From an uncultured Bacteroidaceae bacterium (GTDB lineage Bacteria; Bacteroidota; Bacteroidia; Bacteroidales; DTU049): a DNA stretch of 47,477 nt. The stretch is taken from assembly GCA_964559205.1 (NCBI GenBank), contig CAZLHV010000001.1:1-47477 (forward strand), read 5' to 3'. The notes below the pieces were generated by a model. That model searched no databases and was not told the origin of the DNA. It saw nothing but the letters and a program-made list of their open reading frames with translations. The position numbers and the translations under genes are program-made. Of the stretch, positions 3,413 through 47,477 are shown piece after piece (within the stretch, counting starts at the first letter, position 1; every line of letters begins with the position of its first letter).

Positions 3413-6368
3413 AGCGTATGAAATTGGTAGATATCGATGCCAACCTGACTGAGGTGAGAAAGTGCCTGAGGTTTTCTGCCCTGACATGCATGATCAGGCC
3501 ATCCTCTGCATTGAAGATATAAAGTTGAATATCTTTTCTTTCAGGCGATGAACGAATCATTTCTGTGAGGTTTTCATGGAAAAATACCGCTTCGCCTGCC
3601 GATGGGATCAAGCCGGCAAAGATATGCTGCAAAATGATATTGTTTCTGACAATGCTAAAACAACCAGGTTTATTTCTGACAATGTTTATTTCTGCAGATT
3701 TGACATACACTTCTTCCACCAGATGAGTCATGACAAGCTGATCGGGCAAGGATAACAAATGGCTGGTCCAGTCGCTGGAGTGTGATATTGACAATGCTGA
3801 TGCAATGTTCTGAACAAGAACCTGTGAAACAAAAAGTGGGTCCTGACCTCCGGTTTTCGAATGTGTTGAGGAAATTCCATTCCATTGAATCACCGGGTGC
3901 TGGGGTTTTTCCAACATTCCTTTTAGGGATTCGGCTGAAGTACGGTGCTTGCGCAACAAACCCAGCAATGCTGCTTCCTCGTTGCTGATTACTCCTGAAG
4001 CGAAACCGAGATTGCGGATCATCCATTCTGCAGGCTGCTGCCCGTTGTGAAAGAGCGGATGCAGATCGGAAACGGATATATTTGCCGGAACAACCGCATC
4101 AAGTTTCTGGTTGAAAACCCAGGGTTTTTGCTGAAGTTTCGACAACCATGTAGGCGTGAATGAAATGTCTGCCGAGCGGATATAAGATTCAAAGCGTGCA
4201 AAAGCAGAAGCTTGTTCTTGGGGCAGCAGGCAAAGCATGTTCCACAATGCAGCAGAAGATTGGAGTTCCGGTGCTTTTAAAAAGCTCTCGAGCCCATCGA
4301 GTGTTACATCACAAAAAGTCTCTTTCACAATTGGATGAATATCGGCTTGAATACGCAGATTCGCCTTTTGCTCTTCGCTAAATTCTATCGGGTGTTCAAT
4401 AATGCGAGGGCATTGATGAAGCCCAATCTCAAGAAGAAAACGCAGGGTTGCTTCGCCAGATATACCATGCTTTATGAATGAGCTGATCAATGACGAACGG
4501 ATCAGTAATGCCGGAATATTACGAAAAAAAGCGAGCACCGATGCAGTTTGGATGTACGAGTTCCCAGGTTTGGAAAACAATTTTTCGCCACTTATAGATT
4601 GGGTAACTGGAACAACCTGCATGTCTGCAAGCCTGTGCCGGATTCTGATTTTAAGGTCAGAATCGCTGCTGTTGTATAATTCGAACATATTGAGCCACCA
4701 GTGGTTGGCTTTGTCGGGGTTGAATTTTGCCAGCAATTGTTCCACCATGGGCAGAGCTGGCTGAACTGACGGGATTCCGATGGTTCGCAGAAAATCGAAG
4801 CTTTCACTGTTGTTGATCAGATCGGGATGTACCACCGGAACACCTTTGGCGGGTTTGCCTATGAAAATACAAGCCTGACCATGGTGGTTGAATGGGGCAT
4901 GAAGTATTTTTTTTGAATCAGGAATGCAAGGTTTAAATCGCAAATTGTAATATCTTTCCGAGTGTTTTACATCCCAGTAGCGTGGATACGATGACAGGAG
5001 GCTGAAGAATTGAATGAACCAGCCTGTTTTTTTTGCGGCTAATGCGCCGGGGGTCGATGCCCAATGGAAACAAAAGGTGTCGAGGTCAATCAACTTGAGT
5101 TTGTGTTTGTTGCGCAGGTGGGCAACAAACTCCGGAATCTGGTCATAGTGGTCAGAAATGAAACCGGCGCGGTGAAACACCGATTTCAGCTCTCGTTTGC
5201 TCAGAAGGTTTAGCAGCCTGAAGTCTTCAGCAATTCCAAGTGAACCGATCTGGCATCGTTTCCCGTCAGCATCCATGATTACTTTTTCGTTGGCGATGAA
5301 CTCGCTAAGACATTGCATGATGGTTTCAGAAATCGGATCGCTTGACCCGGCTGTCCAATTGAATAAATTGAAGAAAGATGGATTGATGATGTCCGATCGC
5401 AGCAGGGCATGCAGCATGCCACGGAGCTGGGTTGCCAGATGCTCCAGTAACACAAAATTTTCAGGCGTCAAATCCTGTTGAAAGGGGATGTTTTCGCGGT
5501 TCGGAGTAGTGGTGAATCTGCCATGAACGAAAACAGAATGGGGGATAGTCATCTTGGTTGGGAAATACACAGAGACTGGAGCAGACTGACGCGGTGAAAA
5601 ATCGCCATTGTTGCTTATCGGAAGAGCAATACAAATACGATCCTTTGAGGGATGCCGGTGTATCAGAAAGGTGTCGGTGATCGTTTTGTCTTGATCGAAA
5701 GCCGAAAGTTGGATTCTTCGGAACAATCCATGGTTTTCGCTTGATGCTGCAAGAGTCAGAGAGCGGACTCCGTCGGTGATGTCGATTTGCTGAATCTGGC
5801 TGAGAAAAAGCAGAACGGATGCATTGAGAGAAAAGAGGCGGTTGCTGAGGCTGGTGCGCAACTCTTCGGTGGCACGAATACCCCAAGGCATGCGGATGAG
5901 GGTGCTAAACTCTTTCAGTTGAACGGGACTGACCTTGTGCAATACCTCGTAATCGTGAATACTGTAATGTTTGTCCCCACTATGAATTTCAGGTTGATCG
6001 CAGAAACCAAAAACAGAGCGAAATCCGATGCCGAATTTTCCGATTTTATTGATTCCCGGCTGTCCCGTTTTAGTGGTTGATGCAAAAGTGGTGATGGCCA
6101 TGAGGTCTTCGTCGCTGAAGGGGTCACCATTGTGAAAAAAATCGATGCCGTTTTCCGAAATTTCGATACGAACCATACCGGGTTCACCGGTTTGGGTTTG
6201 GCTCCGTGCAAAAGCGTCTTCGGCATTTTGAAGCAGCTCTTCCACAAAATGAAATGGTTCGGAATATAACATCGACAAAATATGACCGTGACGATTGCCT
6301 TTTATTTTGTTGGCAGCCGCAGCAATTTTACTTTGGGCAATATGTTCATCGAGAGTGAGCCGTTTCAT
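3405..6368 (-). CDS. Sacsin/Hsp90-like GHKL ATPase domain protein, function unknown
   Basis: 987-aa ORF. The N-terminus carries a Bergerat-fold motif set: EELLQNAEDA (N box), HNGDPF (DxGxG-like) and KIGKFGIGFRSVF (G2 box, as in sacsin repeat regions). I recognise no motif in the remaining roughly 750 aa. Confidence 0.65.
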   Translation of the reverse strand: MKRLTLDEHIAQSKIAAAANKIKGNRHGHILSMLYSEPFHFVEELLQNAEDAFARSQTQTGEPGMVRIEISENGIDFFHNGDPFSDEDLMAITTFASTTKTGQPGINKIGKFGIGFRSVFGFCDQPEIHSGDKHYSIHDYEVLHKVSPVQLKEFSTLIRMPWGIRATEELRTSLSNRLFSLNASVLLFLSQIQQIDITDGVRSLTLAASSENHGLFRRIQLSAFDQDKTITDTFLIHRHPSKDRICIALPISNNGDFSPRQSAPVSVYFPTKMTIPHSVFVHGRFTTTPNRENIPFQQDLTPENFVLLEHLATQLRGMLHALLRSDIINPSFFNLFNWTAGSSDPISETIMQCLSEFIANEKVIMDADGKRCQIGSLGIAEDFRLLNLLSKRELKSVFHRAGFISDHYDQIPEFVAHLRNKHKLKLIDLDTFCFHWASTPGALAAKKTGWFIQFFSLLSSYPRYWDVKHSERYYNLRFKPCIPDSKKILHAPFNHHGQACIFIGKPAKGVPVVHPDLINNSESFDFLRTIGIPSVQPALPMVEQLLAKFNPDKANHWWLNMFELYNSSDSDLKIRIRHRLADMQVVPVTQSISGEKLFSKPGNSYIQTASVLAFFRNIPALLIRSSLISSFIKHGISGEATLRFLLEIGLHQCPRIIEHPIEFSEEQKANLRIQADIHPIVKETFCDVTLDGLESFLKAPELQSSAALWNMLCLLPQEQASAFARFESYIRSADISFTPTWLSKLQQKPWVFNQKLDAVVPANISVSDLHPLFHNGQQPAEWMIRNLGFASGVISNEEAALLGLLRKHRTSAESLKGMLEKPQHPVIQWNGISSTHSKTGGQDPLFVSQVLVQNIASALSISHSSDWTSHLLSLPDQLVMTHLVEEVYVKSAEINIVRNKPGCFSIVRNNIILQHIFAGLIPSAGEAVFFHENLTEMIRSSPERKDIQLYIFNAEDGLIMHVRAENLRHFLTSVRLASISTNFIRYE

Positions 6369-41086: not shown

Positions 41087-42094
41087 TTACTGATTGTTAA
41101 GAATTTTCATGAACTCATCGAGATTCGGGGTCAGAATAATCTCGGTGCGGCGGTTTTTCTGACGCGCTTCACTGTTGTTGGCTGCATCGACAGGAACATA
41201 TTCCGAACGACCCGATGCGATGATGCGCGAAGGGGTAATTTTGCCACTTTCAAGGATGATTTTAGTCACACTCGTTGCACGCATCACACTCAAATCCCAG
41301 TTGTCTTTCACCTGCCCGCTTCCCTTGTATGGCACATTGTCGGTATGACCCTCCACCATGATCGAAATATCGGGGTTTTCGGCCAATACGGTCGCCAGCT
41401 TGTTCAATGCATCTTTTCCTTTTGCATTAACAGTCCAGCTGCCCGAAGCAAACAAAAGCGATTCATCCATCGATACATAAATTTTTCCGTTCTTTTCGAC
41501 AATGGTGAGTCCGTTGTTTTCAAAGCCTTTCAACGCAAGCGACAATTTGTCCTTCAGGGCTTTCATTACGCTGTCCTTCTGAGCCAGCATGGATTCGAGT
41601 TCCATGATGCGTTTTTCTTTCAGCAGAAGATCAGCCTGCATCTGATCGAGGTTCTGTTTTTTTAGATTCAGTTCATTCTCAAGCTTTTTCAGTTCAGCTT
41701 CTTTCTGAGCCAGCTGCTCCTGAGTTAGTTGTAGCTCTGTGCTGATTTTTTGGGTTTCCGATGCATTCATTTTCAACAATTCCTCGTACCGGCGATTCAA
41801 CTCTTCGTAAAGGCTGTTGAGCTTGTCATATTGCATGGTCATTTTTCGCAGCGAAATGCCAGTAATGCTCGTATCACGTTCCAAACCGGTGATTTGTTTG
41901 GTCATTGAAGCAATTTTCTCGTTCAACTCAACATTGGTAGAGTTCAGTTTGTCGTAATCGGCTTTCATGGCAGCTGTTTCCGATTCGGCTTTTTCTCGAC
42001 GGGCTTTTTCGTCCTGATACTGTCGGGCGGGCACACACGATGCGGCAAACAAAACAAGCAGTATCGCAGCAGGGATGACAGACTTAATGCTCAT
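41087..42094 (-). CDS. OmpA/MotB-family lipoprotein with long coiled-coil
   Basis: Lipobox LVLFAASC from the ATG at 42094, about 200 aa of heptad-rich coiled-coil, and a C-terminal OmpA_C domain (VEGHTDNVPY...NRRTEI). Confidence 0.78.
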   Translation of the reverse strand: MSIKSVIPAAILLVLFAASCVPARQYQDEKARREKAESETAAMKADYDKLNSTNVELNEKIASMTKQITGLERDTSITGISLRKMTMQYDKLNSLYEELNRRYEELLKMNASETQKISTELQLTQEQLAQKEAELKKLENELNLKKQNLDQMQADLLLKEKRIMELESMLAQKDSVMKALKDKLSLALKGFENNGLTIVEKNGKIYVSMDESLLFASGSWTVNAKGKDALNKLATVLAENPDISIMVEGHTDNVPYKGSGQVKDNWDLSVMRATSVTKIILESGKITPSRIIASGRSEYVPVDAANNSEARQKNRRTEIILTPNLDEFMKILNNQ

Positions 42095-42162
42095 AGGATA
42101 ATGGATTTTGATGTAAAAGTACAAAAAATCATTGAGCTTTGTCAAACGCAGTTAAATGGAAT

Positions 42163-42195
42163 AAAAAAAGCGACAGAACAAAATGCCCTGCCGCT
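42163..42195 (-). terminator. Rho-independent terminator after the MFS transporter gene
   Basis: Minus strand reads AGCGGCAG-(11-nt loop)-CTGTCGCT followed by a 7-T run, 20 nt after the stop at 42215. Confidence 0.6.
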
Positions 42196-42214
42196 TTCTG
42201 AAAATAAAAACAAA

Positions 42215-43870
42215 TTATTTCTGAATATTCGGCAATTCGAGGCCGTATCCGTTTTTACGATCAACACTTTTTAGAACAACGCCCAGAATCAGGGCTGCGA
42301 CGCCGAGGCCGGCCAGCATAATTAAAGGCACGGTGTAATCGTATGAAACAGCAGCCTGTTCGGGTGTGATCACCCCGTTATTCAGGTCTTCGACCACCTG
42401 CGGATTGGTGTTGTCGAGAATTTTACCAATCAGCATCGGGAATAACCATAAACCAATGTTTTGAATCCAGAAAATGAGTGCGTAAGCCGATCCGATGACT
42501 TTCTGATCGACCAGTTTCGGAACGCTCGGCCAGAGAGAAGCAGGCACGAGCGAGAAGGATGAACCAAGAATCAGAATGGTGAGATAAGCAATGACAACAC
42601 CCCCAATGGCATCGCCTTGGAACATGGGAAGAATAAACGCGAAGGTGAGGTGACACACAATGAGCAGGATTGAGCCAATCATCAGCATTGAAGCAGCCTT
42701 ACCTTTGGTATCGACATATTTTCCGAGAATCGGGGTAATTCCCACAGCAAGCAGGGGGAACACTGCAAAAATGGTTTCTGCCGACTGACGCATGTAGCCC
42801 ATGTAGCAGAAGGTGATTAAACTCACCACCGAAATGGTCAGTAGTATGAATTTTGTTGCTTTTTTGCTGAAATTGCTGGCGAATGCTGTGCCGGCAACAA
42901 CCAGCATGATGACATACTGAATAATGGTCACCGTGCCGGAAGCCCAGAATGAACCTTCGGGTACCTTCGTAAAGGTAAGGTTACACTGCAACATATTCAC
43001 CGCATATTTCTGGAAAGGGAAAATGGCTGAATAATACAGCACGCAAAGTAAGGCAACGAGCCAGAAACCGGTGCTTGAGAAGATACGGCTGATGTCGCGG
43101 ACTTTGAAAGGATCGTCTTTTTCTTCCGATTCGCGGGTTTGCGCATCGAGTTTTTTATCCATGAAGAAATACACCACAAACATCATGAGGGCAATCATAA
43201 GCAGGATGACGCCGAAAGCGACCGAGCGTGAAACGTCTATGCTGCCACCAAGATGAGCAAACACCGGCGAGAAGATCATACAGGTAGCCACACCCAAACG
43301 TGCCAGCGCCATTTCTGATCCCATGGCCATGGCCATTTCGCGGCCTTTGAACCATTTGACAATACCGCGCGATACGGTAATTCCGGCCATTTCGACACCA
43401 CAACCAAATATCATAAATCCAACCGCCGACATTTTGGCCGATGCCGGCATGCCCTTATAGAAAGGGGCGATACCCAGTTCATCAAAGCCCGGTATATAAT
43501 TCAGATTATTGTTAAACCACGTCTCCAGACCGCTACCGACAAAGGTATCCGTCACCGCATACCAATTGATGACCGCACCGATCAACATCACAATACCCGA
43601 TAAAATGGCGGTGAACCTAACCCCCATTTTGTCGAGAATGATCCCGGCAAAAATCAGGAAGAAGATAAACACATTCAGGAAAGTTTCCGATCCCTGCATG
43701 GTTCCGAAAGCTGTTGAATCCCAGCCACGGGTCGATTGCATTAAATCTTTGATCGGCGACAGAATGTCCATAAAAATGTATGAACAAAACATGGCGAATG
43801 ACAAGAAAACCAATGCGGTCCAACGGACTGCGGGTTTGTCTCTCAACGTTTTTACAGCATTTTCAACCAT
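42215..43870 (-). CDS. MFS transporter
   Basis: About 12-14 TM helices with a central charged loop. The track start at 43894 is a TTG codon, so the ATG at 43870 (MVENAVK) is preferred. Confidence 0.7.
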   Translation of the reverse strand: MVENAVKTLRDKPAVRWTALVFLSFAMFCSYIFMDILSPIKDLMQSTRGWDSTAFGTMQGSETFLNVFIFFLIFAGIILDKMGVRFTAILSGIVMLIGAVINWYAVTDTFVGSGLETWFNNNLNYIPGFDELGIAPFYKGMPASAKMSAVGFMIFGCGVEMAGITVSRGIVKWFKGREMAMAMGSEMALARLGVATCMIFSPVFAHLGGSIDVSRSVAFGVILLMIALMMFVVYFFMDKKLDAQTRESEEKDDPFKVRDISRIFSSTGFWLVALLCVLYYSAIFPFQKYAVNMLQCNLTFTKVPEGSFWASGTVTIIQYVIMLVVAGTAFASNFSKKATKFILLTISVVSLITFCYMGYMRQSAETIFAVFPLLAVGITPILGKYVDTKGKAASMLMIGSILLIVCHLTFAFILPMFQGDAIGGVVIAYLTILILGSSFSLVPASLWPSVPKLVDQKVIGSAYALIFWIQNIGLWLFPMLIGKILDNTNPQVVEDLNNGVITPEQAAVSYDYTVPLIMLAGLGVAALILGVVLKSVDRKNGYGLELPNIQK

Positions 43871-43996
43871 TGTAGTTTTAATTTGGACGGCCAAATTATT
43901 AAAAAATACAACGCCGTAGAATTTACAACTCTATTTAGAATTTTTACAAATAACATGTTAAACCTAGCATGCAAAAAGAGAGCTAGTTAGGGCTTT

Positions 43997-44608
43997 TTAA
44001 AAAACCTTTACCACCCATTTTGAAGAAAAGAAAACTTCTTCGAAAAAGTCAGAAATAGCAGTCGTGTGACTTGCTTCAGTAATAGCTGCCAGTTCAGCAT
44101 CAATCTCACCACCTTTCAAATACAAAACCCTTGGCTGAGTTCCTTTTGGTTTGCCAATCACAGGTTTAACAAACTGCATAAAAGCAGGGAGAGCCGTGAC
44201 CGCCCGGCTGACCACCACGTCCCAGCGGCCTTTCATTTCTTCGGCTCGCGTTTGAATGGCTTCAACATTTTGTAATCGAAGTGCCGAGGCAACTTCTTTT
44301 ACCACCATGATTTTTTTCCCGATGGAATCAACAAGCGTGAAATGACATTCTGGAAACATGATGGCCAGCGGAATTCCGGGAAATCCGCCACCGGTACCTA
44401 CATCGAGGATTCGTGTGCCTTTGTTGAATGGATACACTTTGGCAATGGCCAGCGAGTGCAAGACGTGCCGCTCGTAGAAGTGATCGAAATCCTTGCGGGA
44501 AATCACATTGATTTTTGAATTCCAGTCGGCATACAAAGCAAACATGTCTGCAAATTGCTTTTGCTGAACGCCGGTGATGTCGGGAAAGTATTTTTTTATC
44601 AGCTCCAT
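43997..44608 (-). CDS. rsmG: 16S rRNA (guanine527-N7)-methyltransferase
   Basis: SAM motif ILDVGTGGGFPGIPLAI and typical 200-aa GidB length from the ATG at 44608 (MELIKKYF). The track start at 44722 overlaps the upstream gene. Confidence 0.88.
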   Translation of the reverse strand: MELIKKYFPDITGVQQKQFADMFALYADWNSKINVISRKDFDHFYERHVLHSLAIAKVYPFNKGTRILDVGTGGGFPGIPLAIMFPECHFTLVDSIGKKIMVVKEVASALRLQNVEAIQTRAEEMKGRWDVVVSRAVTALPAFMQFVKPVIGKPKGTQPRVLYLKGGEIDAELAAITEASHTTAISDFFEEVFFSSKWVVKVF

Positions 44609-44616
44609 GGGCACAA

Positions 44617-45201
44617 TCAGAACTCCGATGTAATGTCCATGAGCGGAACTCTTTCGGCTCTGTAAAAACGGGCCTTGTAATAGGGGCTGCTGAGATAATC
44701 GAAGCGCACGCCGCCATTGCATGCGGAATGAATGAATAAGATATCGTTGTCGAGCACCTCGTACACCATTCCAACATGACCAATACCGCTGCGGTAGCGT
44801 TGTGTATTGACAAAAAACAGAATGTCGCCAGGCCGGATGAGACTATCGGGAACCACACGACCTGAGCCGGCCATGTCGGCAGCACTGGGCGAGAGACTCA
44901 CACCAAGATGGGCATACATGGTCATGACATATCCGCTGCAATCGAAGCCAGCCCGGCTTTTACCAGCCCAACGATACGGTACGCCTAGAAAGCTTTTGGC
45001 ATAGGTAAGCAGTTCGGTGGTAAGGCTGTCGCGAATATAGCGGGCTTTTGCAAGGGTATCGTTCTGAATTTGCGTTTTTACCGAGTCATCGACCTGAGCG
45101 TTTGCCGGGGGCGACGAAACCACCACGCCGGTTTGAGCGATGAGGCTCAACGAAGCGGCTACAACAAAGATCATCAAAAGAGAAACAAAAGAAAATCGCA
45201 T
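44617..45201 (-). CDS. C40-family (NlpC/P60) peptidoglycan peptidase
   Basis: 194 aa with a signal peptide, catalytic Cys motif GFDCSGYV, and downstream GDILFF...HVGMV (catalytic His). Confidence 0.85.
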   Translation of the reverse strand: MRFSFVSLLMIFVVAASLSLIAQTGVVVSSPPANAQVDDSVKTQIQNDTLAKARYIRDSLTTELLTYAKSFLGVPYRWAGKSRAGFDCSGYVMTMYAHLGVSLSPSAADMAGSGRVVPDSLIRPGDILFFVNTQRYRSGIGHVGMVYEVLDNDILFIHSACNGGVRFDYLSSPYYKARFYRAERVPLMDITSEF

Positions 45202-45235
45202 CCAAAATTATTTACATTCAACAAGGTGTAAAACA

Positions 45236-45243
45236 CAAAGATA
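45236..45243 (-). promoter_or_regulatory. Candidate -7 promoter box for the peptidase-rsmG unit (TATCTTTG)
   Basis: Exact TAnnTTTG match on the minus strand, 35 nt upstream of the ATG at 45201. Confidence 0.45.
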
Positions 45244-45536
45244 CATATTTTTTTTAAAGCAGGGAGCTTGCAGTTTTTTGTTATGGCACAAAGACCGGAA
45301 CGATTGTGTGAAGATGGATGAGTGGTTTATTTCAATCTTTTTTTTGAGATACTTGATGATTGTGATGTTTCTTCAGTGGATTAAACCAATGAGTTCGGTA
45401 GGTGAATCAATGTTATCGAAAGTTAAAGCAATGATAAGTGAAAGTGTGGCAAAGAGGAGGAGTAAGCAAGAAGCTAAGAGAGGGGAAGACGGTTCCAGAA
45501 GGTGGGAAAGCGATACAAAATGAGGGAGGACTTGGT

Positions 45537-45998
45537 GCGAAGCGCACAATTTCATTCGCGAAATGCACGAAGAAGTGTGCAAAACTGACTTTGAGTTGCG
45601 CGAAGTGGAGTTTGAGTCTCGCGAAAAGGAGTGCACGTGTCGCGAAATGCATTTTTGGTAGTGCAAAATGAAGTTTGAGTTGTGCGGAGCGGAGTTTCAG
45701 TAGTGCAAAAGGCGCGGACAGTTGTGCGAAATGCTGTGACAGCAGTGAAATGTAAAATGTCAGTCATGAAATGCAAAGTGTCGGTTGTGAAATGCAATGT
45801 GTTGGACATGAAATGCAATGTGTCAGCAATGAAATGCGTAGTGTCGGTCATGAAATGCAATGTAACAGTAGTGAAATGCAATGTAACAGTAGTGAAACGC
45901 AATGTGACAGTAGTGAAATGTGCAGTGTCGGTCATGAAATACTGAGTGTCGGTAGTGAAATAAGAAATGACAGTTGTGAGTAAAGAGTTTTGAGTGGA
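45537..45998. repeat. Array of about 22 contiguous 21-bp tandem repeats (no spacers) in two sub-families
   Basis: The right half (45745-45977) has 11 units with consensus (G/A)TGAAATGCAATGTnnC(A/G)GTnn, including two adjacent identical copies (45852-45872 and 45873-45893). The left half (45537-45746) has 10 more diverged units starting GCGAA/GCAAAA. Unit types there recur every 84 bp: GCGAAATGC at 45558, 45642 and 45726, and GAGTTTGAGT-type pairs at 45579/45600 and 45663/45684. A single 19-bp junction at 45726-45745 separates the halves. Degenerate units continue on both flanks. Confidence 0.9.
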
Positions 45999-46225
45999 CA
46001 GTTGTTGGTGGACGATGGCTTTGGCAGAAAGGATCAAACTCAACGATTCCATATCCCCTGGCTCCTTTGTTGTCAGTGGACGATGGAATGGAATTTGTGT
46101 TTGGGGTGTGATTATTTGATTCATTGATTGAATTATGGGGCAGTGGGGGAGTGAGGTTAATAGAATAAATTTGTGAAATTATCTGGTTTTTTTCTTTAAC
46201 GCGATAACTTTTAGTAAACTTTTTC

Positions 46226-46233
46226 TATTTTTG
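46226..46233 (+). promoter_or_regulatory. Candidate plus-strand -7 box (TATTTTTG) upstream of the tracrRNA/cas9 region
   Basis: This is the only exact TAnnTTTG match I found on the plus strand in the 160 nt before the cas9 ATG. A transcript from here would run antisense through the tracrRNA gene. Confidence 0.3.
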
Positions 46234-46239
46234 TTTTAT

Positions 46240-46330
46240 AAAAAAAAGCGATCCCGACATGTCGGGACCACTTTGAATGTTTTCACAACGGAATAATCCT
46301 TATTGTGATTTGCTTAGTTCTGAGGGCAAA
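46240..46330 (-). ncRNA. tracrRNA candidate (anti-repeat, nexus, terminator hairpin), divergent from cas9
   Basis: Minus strand reads ...CCCUCAGAACUAAGCAAAUCACAAU-AAGGAUUAUUCCGUU-GUGAAAACAUUCAAAGUGG-UCCCGACAUGUCGGGA-UCGC-UUUUUUUU. The module order and the AAUAAGG..CCGUU..AAAGUGG..hairpin..U-run mirror the S. pyogenes tracrRNA scaffold. An exact TATATTTG -7 box on the minus strand at 46327-46334 would place the 5' end near 46320. The exact 5' end is uncertain. Confidence 0.75.
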
Positions 46331-46361
46331 TATACAATAAAAAATTAAAAAACAATATACT

Positions 46362-47477
46362 ATGAAAAAAATTCTTGGTTTGGATTTGGGAATAAACTCT
46401 ATTGGATGGGCTTTGGTAAACGAAGCTGAAAACACGAGCGAAAAGTCTTCAATTATAAAACTTGGTGTTAGGGTAAACCCATTAACTGTTGACGAATTAA
46501 TGAATTTTGAAAAAGGCAAAAGCATTACAACGAATGCAGATCGTACTTTGAAAAGAAGTATGCGCCGAAATCTTCAACGATATAAGCTTCGCAGAGAAAA
46601 TCTTATCCAAGTTCTTTTGCAAAACAAGTTTATAACTGAAAACACATTACTCTCTGAAAATGGCAATCACACCACTTTTGAAACATTAAGGCTTAGGTCT
46701 AAAGCCGCAACAGAAAAGATATCGTTAGAACAATTAGGACGAGTTTTTCTAATGATTAATAAAAAACGAGGATATAAGAGCAGTAGAAAAGCCAAAAATC
46801 AGGAGGAAGGCCAGCTGATTGATGGAATGGAAATAGCCATGAAATTGTATAATGAACAACTGACTCCTGGCCAATTTGTGTTTCAAAGCTTGCAGAGTGG
46901 CAACAGGTTCATCCCTGATTTTTATCGCTCGGATCTTCTATCTGAATTTGAAAAAGTTTGGAAGTTTCAAAAGCAATTCTATCCTGAGATTTTAAGTGAT
47001 GATTTCCGTGTTGAAATAGAGGGTAAAGGTTTGCGATTTACTTCTGCAGCTTTTTATAAAAAATACGGGTTCAATACAGCTGAGATGAAAGGCTCTCGAG
47101 ATGAAAAAAAACTGCAATCGTATCATTTGCGTTCTGTAGCCATCAAATCAAAGCTGACAAAAGAAGAAGTTGCTTTTGTTTTGGCAGAAATTAACAATAA
47201 TCTTAATGCATCGAGTGGATACTTAGGCTCTATTAGTGACAGAAGCAAAGAGCTCTACTTCAATAAAAAAACAGTTGGAGAGTATCTTATGGCGCAATTA
47301 GATACGAACCCACACACAAAGCTCAAAAACCAAGTTTTCTATCGCCAAGATTATTTGGATGAATTTGATAAAATATGGGAGACTCAAAAATCATTTCACG
47401 ATGTATTGACTCCAGAACTTAAAAAAGAAATAAGAGACATTATAATATTCTATCAACGTCGATTAAAAAGCCAGAAA
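46362..47477 (+). CDS. cas9: CRISPR-associated endonuclease Cas9, N-terminal 372 codons (truncated by the window end)
   Basis: Hand translation gives MKKILGLDLGINSIGWALVNEAEN... (RuvC-I motif with catalytic Asp8). It also shows the Arg-rich bridge helix RTLKRSMRRNLQRYKLRRENL, MINKKRGYKSS and IIFYQRRLKSQK. The frame is open for all 1116 nt with an in-frame stop at 46338-46340 upstream. It is not in the ORF track because no stop codon is reached. Confidence 0.9.
   Translation, partial: MKKILGLDLGINSIGWALVNEAENTSEKSSIIKLGVRVNPLTVDELMNFEKGKSITTNADRTLKRSMRRNLQRYKLRRENLIQVLLQNKFITENTLLSENGNHTTFETLRLRSKAATEKISLEQLGRVFLMINKKRGYKSSRKAKNQEEGQLIDGMEIAMKLYNEQLTPGQFVFQSLQSGNRFIPDFYRSDLLSEFEKVWKFQKQFYPEILSDDFRVEIEGKGLRFTSAAFYKKYGFNTAEMKGSRDEKKLQSYHLRSVAIKSKLTKEEVAFVLAEINNNLNASSGYLGSISDRSKELYFNKKTVGEYLMAQLDTNPHTKLKNQVFYRQDYLDEFDKIWETQKSFHDVLTPELKKEIRDIIIFYQRRLKSQK

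Follow-up and report, generated by a model that had tools for sequence, protein, structure and literature searches.

The 21-bp tandem repeat array at positions 45535 to 45997 of contig CAZLHV010000001.1, from an uncultured Bacteroidaceae bacterium, is probably an ordinary non-coding minisatellite of variable copy number, similar to a variable-number tandem repeat (VNTR), and would form the core of a lineage-specific block that lies at a rearrangement junction. The window analysed here is the entire contig, 47,477 bp long, of one National Center for Biotechnology Information (NCBI) metagenome-assembled genome, whose relatives are labelled Bacteroidales. The array lies between a gene for an NlpC/P60 peptidase and a locus consisting of a tracrRNA (trans-activating CRISPR RNA) gene and cas9, and an earlier sequence-only reading of the same DNA had proposed that this position beside cas9 may be of functional importance. 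We delimit an intergenic block of about 860 bp, which would consist of a leader (45255-45534), the array itself and a tail (45998-46110). In our interpretation a dedicated binding protein, an RNA product or a CRISPR role need not be assumed for this block.

The repeat array is real. When the region is cut into 21-mers from position 45535 it yields 22 head-to-tail units in a single register, and the limits of the whole array, which has no assigned strand, rest on this unit listing together with Tandem Repeats Finder, a repeat search and the identity at a lag of 21. Ungapped identity is 0.66 at lag 21 versus 0.25±0.04 at unrelated lags, and it is 0.75 for the right half alone. Tandem Repeats Finder, which the sequence-only reading had named as a means of confirming the unit structure, finds a 21-bp period at 45746-45961 (10.3 copies, 76% matches), overlapped by periods of 42, 63 and 84 bp, and a further 84-bp period at 45577-45734 (1.9 copies, 77% matches). 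The repeat search finds an exact 21-bp spacing of copies from 45556 to about 46000. In a search of the window the consensus unit has four matches at three or fewer mismatches, compared with 0.02 expected by chance, and neither the unit nor the array has a second copy anywhere else in the 47-kb window. The earlier count of about 22 contiguous 21-bp units is borne out by the three methods of Tandem Repeats Finder, repeat search and unit listing. Head-to-tail units in the range of roughly 10-100 bp, at a frequency far over chance, are characteristic of a minisatellite.

The units belong to two subfamilies, to neither of which a strand is assigned. The right subfamily (45745-45975) has 11 units with the consensus GTGAAATGCAAAGTGTCAGTA, which have 13-20 of the 21 positions in common. 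Among them are two identical neighbours, as had been reported from the letters alone: TGAAATGCAATGTAACAGTAG occurs twice in succession, at 45851-45871 and 45872-45892. Units 16-18 are the closest to each other (18-20 of 21 positions). The TGAAATG core is conserved in this subfamily, where it accounts for 3 of the 45 deviations from the consensus. The left subfamily (45535-45744) has 10 diverged units of the type GTGCGAAATGC, with the consensus GTGCGAAATGCAGTTTGAGTT, a core that is shifted by 2 nt and 10-17 of 21 positions in common, and here the motif is mostly degenerate. The description of the core as nearly invariant is therefore accurate for the 11 right-hand units but not for the left half. 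A 19-bp junction between the two halves had also been described. The spacing between cores is indeed 19 bp, with GAAATG starting at 45728 and at 45747, but it results from a 2-nt shift inside the unit and not from a short unit, and the DNA register remains 21 throughout. Similarly, a higher-order pattern of 84 bp in the left half is visible both as a Tandem Repeats Finder period and in the pairs of units 3 and 7 (17 of 21 positions) and 4 and 8 (16 of 21), but it is weak, since the mean identity at a lag of four units is not above that at a lag of one unit.

Alignments with related sequences show breakpoints of synteny at 45254 and at about 46110, which bound the block. On the left, the closest relative of the peptidase locus (L215) has 92.9% DNA identity to the window over 41100-45254 in blastn. 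Position 45254, a short distance upstream of the peptidase promoter, is the exact end of this homology; from there on L215 has a 318-bp spacer that is free of repeats, and neither an array nor cas9 is found at its peptidase locus. More distant relatives, whose peptidase is 60-63% identical, retain the order peptidase, GidB, major facilitator superfamily (MFS) transporter and OmpA, and have a gap of 390-610 bp upstream of the peptidase followed by a divergent beta-propeller gene. Relatives with 60-83% peptidase identity showed no 21-bp repeats upstream of the peptidase, and no cas9 either, and from these comparisons we judge that the array does not belong to the peptidase locus. The leader, a non-repetitive and purine-rich flank without an assigned strand, is defined by its composition and by the end of the L215 alignment, beginning exactly where that homology stops. 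It has only 9% C on the + strand and a faint signal at lag 21 (identity 0.37 vs 0.29±0.03). At the left breakpoint (45259-45271, + strand), a hairpin that resembles a terminator, GCAGGGAGCTTGC with a run of T after it, points into the block; it may be a remnant of an earlier context of the block. The C-poor composition of the + strand is not restricted to the leader, as it is seen throughout 45255-46240, flanks included, with a GC skew of +0.4 to +0.5.

The tail, again non-repetitive and without an assigned strand, was delimited by comparison with a second copy. This is the contig JBFLWH010001185.1 (L183, 1,051 bp, assembly GCA_040758335.1), which was reached through a phmmer match, P0241, described below. 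L183 matches the window from 46110 to 45865 with 92% identity in blastn, and the identity is about 96% where its tail and first units are compared. Beyond the tail it has the 3' end of a CHU_C gene, of the type IX secretion system (T9SS), instead of tracrRNA and cas9. Within the array of L183, the unit at 45892 is directly followed by the one at 45724 and the window units at 45745-45891 are absent, so that L183 has exactly seven fewer units (147 bp, in register). This is the sole comparison of copy number, and L183, a contig assembled from short reads, breaks off within the array. As aligned, tail and array are shown in two genomic contexts with apparently differing numbers of units. The earlier proposal that the array expands and contracts is supported by this in-register block of seven units, and an in-register difference in unit number between related genomes, here between the window and a short-read contig, is a further property of minisatellites. 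L183 has been binned as 'Candidatus Riflebacteria'. Given its identity of about 96% to a Bacteroidales window and its CHU_C/T9SS-type gene, it has probably been mis-binned.

Growth and shrinkage of the array may have occurred through slipped-strand mispairing or unequal recombination between units. Either process would explain the identical neighbours, the sub-periods of 42, 63 and 84 bp, the two subfamilies and the clean difference of seven units. The block may have been brought to its present site by recombination or by mobilisation in the manner of miniature inverted-repeat transposable elements (MITEs). Its effect on the neighbouring genes would most likely be passive, in that it would add about 0.9 kb between the peptidase promoter and the promoters of cas9 and tracrRNA, and a period of 21 bp would sum any small DNA bend coherently. 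Several observations weigh against this interpretation as a minisatellite. The TGAAATG of the right half is conserved far above the rest of the unit (P about 2e-5, for a core that was picked post hoc), which could be the mark of a factor that binds there. An extreme excess of G over C, for which drift alone is insufficient, extends over the entire block with its flanks, and the 21-bp period has been maintained despite the internal 2-nt shift between the subfamilies. In addition, the difference of seven units could be a collapse during short-read assembly, since L183 ends within the array, and the genome studied here is represented by a single contig. Conservation of the right-half core and the strand skew of the block are left unexplained by a minisatellite origin, and on this account we retain a small probability that a factor binds the array.

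In its architecture the block most resembles a known element of the same order. BrickBuilt (Klein et al. 2015, PMC4596501), a MITE of Porphyromonas gingivalis with a minisatellite inside it, has imperfect 23-nt repeats that follow one another without spacers in as many as 22.8 copies; its leader measures at most 285 nt and its tail at most 318 nt. Its copies are always intergenic, are sometimes mis-annotated as hypothetical genes and were judged to be unrelated to CRISPR (PMC4596501). The block described here is likewise intergenic in a member of the Bacteroidales. Like BrickBuilt, which has up to about 23 copies, it has imperfect, spacer-less units of about 20 nt with conserved and variable positions, non-repetitive leader and tail sequences around the array and a total length within about 1 kb, and spurious hypothetical genes are sometimes called across such repeats. 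The differences are a unit of 21 nt instead of 23 nt, the absence of IS5-like inverted repeats (GAGACCTTTGCA / TGCAAAGGTCTC, at three or fewer mismatches) at both block boundaries, and the fact that no Bacteroidetes-type -7 promoter motif (TAnnTTTG) occurs inside the array or anywhere from 45244 to 46165, while promoter activity in both directions is a property of BrickBuilt. With IS5-like ends absent and a single contig of this genome available, we call the block BrickBuilt-like in form and do not class it as a member of the family. The array also resembles the VNTR loci used in multiple-locus VNTR analysis (MLVA) of bacteria, in being intergenic, in its head-to-tail units in the 10-100 bp range, in its in-register differences and in the presence of identical neighbours in what would be its youngest part. 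Typical loci of this kind differ from it in that the present array is long and degenerate and has two subfamilies, and its variation is known from one short-read comparison.

These likenesses raise the possibility that the block moves as a non-autonomous element with a minisatellite inside it, similar to the BrickBuilt MITE, with several copies per genome and a transposase encoded elsewhere. We consider this unlikely. It would account for the presence of the same tail and array in two contexts and for the abrupt loss of homology at both ends of the block; moreover, the leader (about 280 nt), the 22 units and the tail (about 110 nt) lie within the dimensions of BrickBuilt (up to 285 nt, 22.8 copies and 318 nt), and multi-copy 21-bp arrays with conserved flanks are present in other Bacteroidales. 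Against mobility, the block has no terminal inverted repeats, the one long inverted match being A+T-rich promoter sequence (31 nt, 71% complementary). No IS5-type inverted repeat GAGACCTTTGCA is found at its ends, no target-site duplication is visible, the 47-kb window has no second copy and no match was found in plasmid, phage or viral collections. An abrupt change of synteny on both sides could also arise if the repeat had led a metagenomic assembler to fuse two regions that do not belong together. The window consists of one metagenome contig, which ends 1.1 kb into cas9, and such arrays often terminate contigs in other assemblies. However, the units are diverged (about 76% identity), so that short reads can span them uniquely, the breakpoints at 45254 and 46110 are located outside the array and the junction between tail and array is independently confirmed by L183. 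An assembly artefact of this kind therefore seems very unlikely to us.

A protein-coding origin of the array is suggested by its open frames. Five of the six frames of the consensus unit are open on direct reading, and the ORF (open reading frame) list contains a 190-aa minus-strand ORF at 45552-46124; both had been pointed out in the sequence-only reading. The array might accordingly encode, or once have encoded, a heptad-repeat protein, either through this minus-strand ORF (TLHFTTV) or through a + frame reading VKCNVTV. A 101-aa hypothetical protein annotated over the homologous stretch in another assembly, the purine-rich + strand and a weakly codon-like distribution of variation over codon positions in + frame 0 (16, 8 and 21, which is not significant) would be compatible with such a gene. 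However, a search of 5.8 billion proteins with the 190-aa ORF gave no match, not even the ORF itself, which implies that no gene was ever called for it in the deposited record; the peptidase of the same contig is present in that collection. An exhaustive phmmer search with the same ORF gave a single close match, P0241 (101 aa, 85% identity, hypothetical protein MEW6713406.1), which is the copy on L183, and all other matches were generic matches to heptad repeats. No Pfam family matches any of the seven ORFs across the region. Of the six codon differences between the window and L183, five are non-synonymous and one is synonymous. No single frame reads the core consistently over both halves of the array, since the minus strand reads the conserved core in a different frame in each half and the + strand ORFs are broken at 45669-45682. 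The absence of a Pfam match, of homologs beyond the L183 copy and of synonymous bias agrees with the argument made earlier from the two reading frames against a conserved repeat protein. A conserved homologous ORF, as would be expected of a repeat-protein gene, was not found and the divergence is mostly non-synonymous. We conclude that the array is most likely non-coding, in keeping with a minisatellite, noting that the searches of the large protein collections covered the minus-strand ORF, and we regard a heptad-repeat gene as highly improbable. A structured non-coding RNA is not indicated either: folding is no better than that of shuffled sequence (z = +1.17 on one strand and -0.12 on the other), and no Rfam family reaches its gathering score.

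The location of the array about 250 bp from the terminator of a tracrRNA gene raises the question of a function linked to CRISPR, such as that of a regulatory or decoy RNA with pairing to the tracrRNA, of a degenerate CRISPR array without spacers or of a target for autoregulation by Cas9. The cas9 gene (46362-47477, + strand) is represented by its 5' part, 372 codons, and runs off the end of the contig; its homologs, which are 60-77% identical, are named type II Cas9/Csn1 in their sources. The tracrRNA gene (46245-46325, minus strand) was predicted from an alignment with four Cas9 relatives (L179-L182, 66-72% identity), a terminator scan and a motif scan. It contains a core of 34 nt (TTTCACAACGGAATAATCCTTATTGTGATTTGCTT on the + strand) that is invariant across the four. 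Its intrinsic terminator lies at 46274-46245 and its -7 box, TATATTTG, at 46334-46327. Its region matches that of L179 over 48 nt at 98% identity. It is transcribed away from cas9, and the terminator hairpin is kept across loci while its sequence differs. A weak Rfam match to the GibS small RNA overlaps the tracrRNA gene (46239-46372, minus strand; 34 bits vs a gathering score of 115, E = 0.012) and is most likely due to chance. The four Cas9 relatives have sequence in common with the window only from 46268 rightwards. The upstream flank is visible in two of them, L179 (a Pedobacter contig, 134 bp) and L180 (233 bp), the contigs of the other two beginning inside the tracrRNA region; neither L179 nor L180 has an array upstream of cas9, and each is flanked by unrelated genes. 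Between the tail and the tracrRNA gene lies an A+T-rich unique spacer (46111-46240, + strand) that is common to neither L183 nor the cas9 relatives. Motif scanning and comparisons identify two Bacteroidetes-type -7 boxes in it, TAAATTTG at 46166 and TATTTTTG at 46226, both facing cas9.

Apart from proximity, the case for a CRISPR link rests on the core of the unit, GTGAAATGC, which on direct reading agrees at 7 of 9 positions with GTGATTTGC, the 5' end of the repeat as inferred from the tracrRNA anti-repeat. By our estimate about two matches of this quality are expected by chance over all offsets of unit and repeat, and pairing of the unit with the tracrRNA or the CRISPR repeat was rejected as being at the level of chance. 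In addition, the units abut one another and the array has no spacers, as is evident from the unit listing. Repeats of type II CRISPR systems are 36-47 nt long, and a unit of 21 nt is far below this length. Upstream of cas9, homology of the window to the four Cas9 relatives is limited to the tracrRNA region and the two visible upstream flanks lack the array, which gives no support to the functional tie to cas9 and tracrRNA that had been suggested. Co-occurrence with this cas9 lineage fails in the other direction too, as no Cas9 is encoded in any of the 90 genome stretches with similar arrays that are described below. The sequence-only reading had allowed that an array scattered over many unrelated loci, away from CRISPR, would be a generic minisatellite. 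L183, in which the same array adjoins an unrelated CHU_C gene at a locus without a CRISPR link, comes close to that outcome. With neither spacers nor co-occurrence with cas genes, the array is not a CRISPR array or part of such a module. As far as can be judged from these comparisons it most likely lies outside the CRISPR-Cas module, its proximity to a horizontally acquired type II-C locus being incidental, and we consider a CRISPR-linked function extremely unlikely.

A survey of other genomes places the array in a wider setting. Searching genomes for three TGAAATGC cores at intervals of 21 bp yielded 90 stretches from very diverse phyla, and as these were chosen by their core they provide little proof about the core. 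The set is heterogeneous: at least 21 lie inside long ORFs and consist of coding-like heptad repeats such as E-M-R-E-F-K-D, while the remaining arrays are intergenic and mostly from Bacteroidota, Verrucomicrobiota and Acidobacteriota. The E-M-R-E-F-K-D repeats belong to a heptad protein family with a conserved segment of the type 'NRxWGxLANK' (L008, L010, L024, L034, L036, L056, L062, L082 and L085). Members of this family come from Desulfobacterota, Chloroflexota, Chlorobiales and Thiomargarita, and many of the coding pattern matches are due to it. In viral contigs TGAAATGC gave 17 matches, compared with 10, 2, 1 and 1 for four composition-matched control 8-mers, but nearly all of the 17 are coding repeats of an E-M-P type and the control is confounded by this. 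No neighbouring gene recurs among the TGAAATGC arrays. For these reasons, the coding mixture, the periodic controls, a core that is not specially conserved and the lack of a recurring neighbour, a cross-phylum family of TGAAATGC arrays was rejected. Homology to the most similar array, in L071 (71-73% identity), was also rejected, as the similarity is not beyond chance for loci that were selected on an 8-nt core. The L071 array lies in a Bacteroidales intergenic zone (4183-5031) downstream of a housekeeping gene. This zone is packed with successive unrelated tandem arrays, in the order TTGCTAT/TTGTTAT heptamers, CACAGAG, GGAGCTTTG and the 21-bp TGAAATGC array, which reaches the end of the contig.

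In several genomes, namely Odoribacteraceae Cc175_bin13, Prevotellaceae Roe453_bin86 and Paludibacter, 21-bp arrays occur at several loci with conserved flanks, and where the same array is found at several such loci in one genome it behaves as a dispersed element. In both Cc175_bin13 (L014, L016, L022, L041, L068, L070, L078 and L080) and Roe453_bin86 (L026, L030, L042 and L081) the arrays are found on many contigs, often at the contig ends, with conserved tail or leader sequences, and they look like dispersed elements that carry minisatellites. Those of Roe453_bin86 are flanked by GCTGGCGCCAGC palindromes and runs of heptamers. The other tandem repeats in the 90 stretches have a marked preference for certain periods, with 21, 17 and 20 arrays at periods of 7, 14 and 21 bp, compared with 1, 2 and 1 at 20, 22 and 23 bp. 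This excess points to slippage based on heptamers and not to selection for the helical repeat. It fits the excess of heptamer repeats in prokaryotes attributed to Mrazek (2007) where that work is cited in PMC4679880. The same source describes TAACTGA repeats of Beggiatoaceae, Cyanobacteria and Bacteroidetes and the cyanobacterial short tandemly repeated repetitive (STRR) class of heptanucleotide tandem repeats (PMC4679880). The present array resembles these in being intergenic, of unassigned function and patchy across phyla, with periods that are multiples of 7, but it is a true 21-mer composed of three mutually unrelated heptamers and has no TAACTGA motif. A literature search on 21-bp repeats in Bacteroidetes found nothing specific.

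A spacing of 21 bp corresponds to two helical turns of B-DNA. The sequence-only reading had taken this as a sign of cooperative protein binding, with the repeats acting in the manner of iterons or operators. While the geometry is correct, the inference is unsupported by the surroundings of the array, where we find no replication or regulator gene, no cluster of DnaA boxes and no plasmid similarity. According to this hypothesis TGAAATG would be recognised on one face of the helix in phased sites that control neighbouring promoters, replication or partition. In its favour are the spacing, the conservation of the core in the right half and a weak bias in orientation, in that core and downstream gene point the same way in 31 of 48 non-coding TGAAATGC arrays (vs 17), on the basis of rough gene calls. 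Yet the motif is mostly lost in the left half, and conservation of the core does not exceed that of the remaining unit in 40 other non-coding arrays (0.175 vs 0.211 deviations per site; lower in 22 arrays, higher in 18). Close relatives of the loci on either side do not have the array. Its neighbours are the NlpC/P60 peptidase and tracrRNA/cas9, with no rep, par or regulator gene next to it, and neither the tail nor the array has a match in plasmid, phage or viral collections. DnaA boxes (TTATCCACA, at no more than one mismatch) number 12 in the window compared with 11.8 by chance, and none lies within 45200-46300. A replication origin, prompted by the presence of rsmG/gidB nearby and by a DnaA box in L083, was rejected for the same reason. 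The R6K gamma origin has seven contiguous 22-bp iterons, and the present array is like plasmid iterons in its contiguous direct repeats of about 21-22 bp, conserved core and spacing of two helical turns. It differs from them in having no Rep gene, DnaA boxes, A+T-rich unwinding element or plasmid homology, in its chromosomal housekeeping context and in its far greater number of copies. With neither a cognate Rep or Par gene nor DnaA boxes or an A+T-rich unwinding element, it lacks the expected surroundings of an iteron-type replication origin or partition site. Phased binding sites for a protein are in our view a doubtful explanation, with a low probability. Still less likely is a broader version, in which 21-bp arrays with a TGAAATG core would constitute a class of cis-acting or mobile elements of Bacteroidota and other phyla, mostly located upstream of genes in sense orientation and bound by a protein, with the present copy modulating the promoters of cas9 and tracrRNA or of the peptidase.

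The peptidase gene on the left of the block (44617-45201, minus strand) encodes a member of the NlpC/P60 (C40) family, as indicated by a match to PF00877, the names of its homologs in their sources and its synteny with GidB, MFS and OmpA. A motif scan places its Bacteroidetes-type -7 box, TATCTTTG, at 45243-45236. Beyond OmpA the window has RarA and L215 has a 1,092-aa tetratricopeptide repeat (TPR) protein, so that the block shared with L215 (41100-45254) is a short syntenic stretch with rearrangements at both sides. An intergenic element of about 70 nt, gacgccagaatgttgggt...ggacatggaatcgtcggga, is conserved in the peptidase relatives L171 (5690-5760) and L175 (5700-5830), the latter having a second, partial copy; it may be a repeat of this lineage similar to a repetitive extragenic palindromic (REP) element or a MITE. 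A metagenome scan with the peptidase gave a best match of 44% identity and no useful synteny, and an exact-protein look-up found no record for the peptidase or the RarA of the window.

Our preferred interpretation of the array as a VNTR-like minisatellite removes a tempting false lead: a repeat array beside cas9 looks as if it were related to CRISPR, and related loci show that the proximity is incidental. The array also illustrates how spurious 'hypothetical proteins' originate, one copy being on record as MEW6713406.1. Between the genes of Bacteroidota, minisatellites that lack spacers and have a period of 7, 14 or 21 bp appear to be common and are poorly described, and a census of them would be more informative than a single locus. 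For this uncultured Bacteroidales lineage the array marks a point of rearrangement and could serve as a marker for strain typing.

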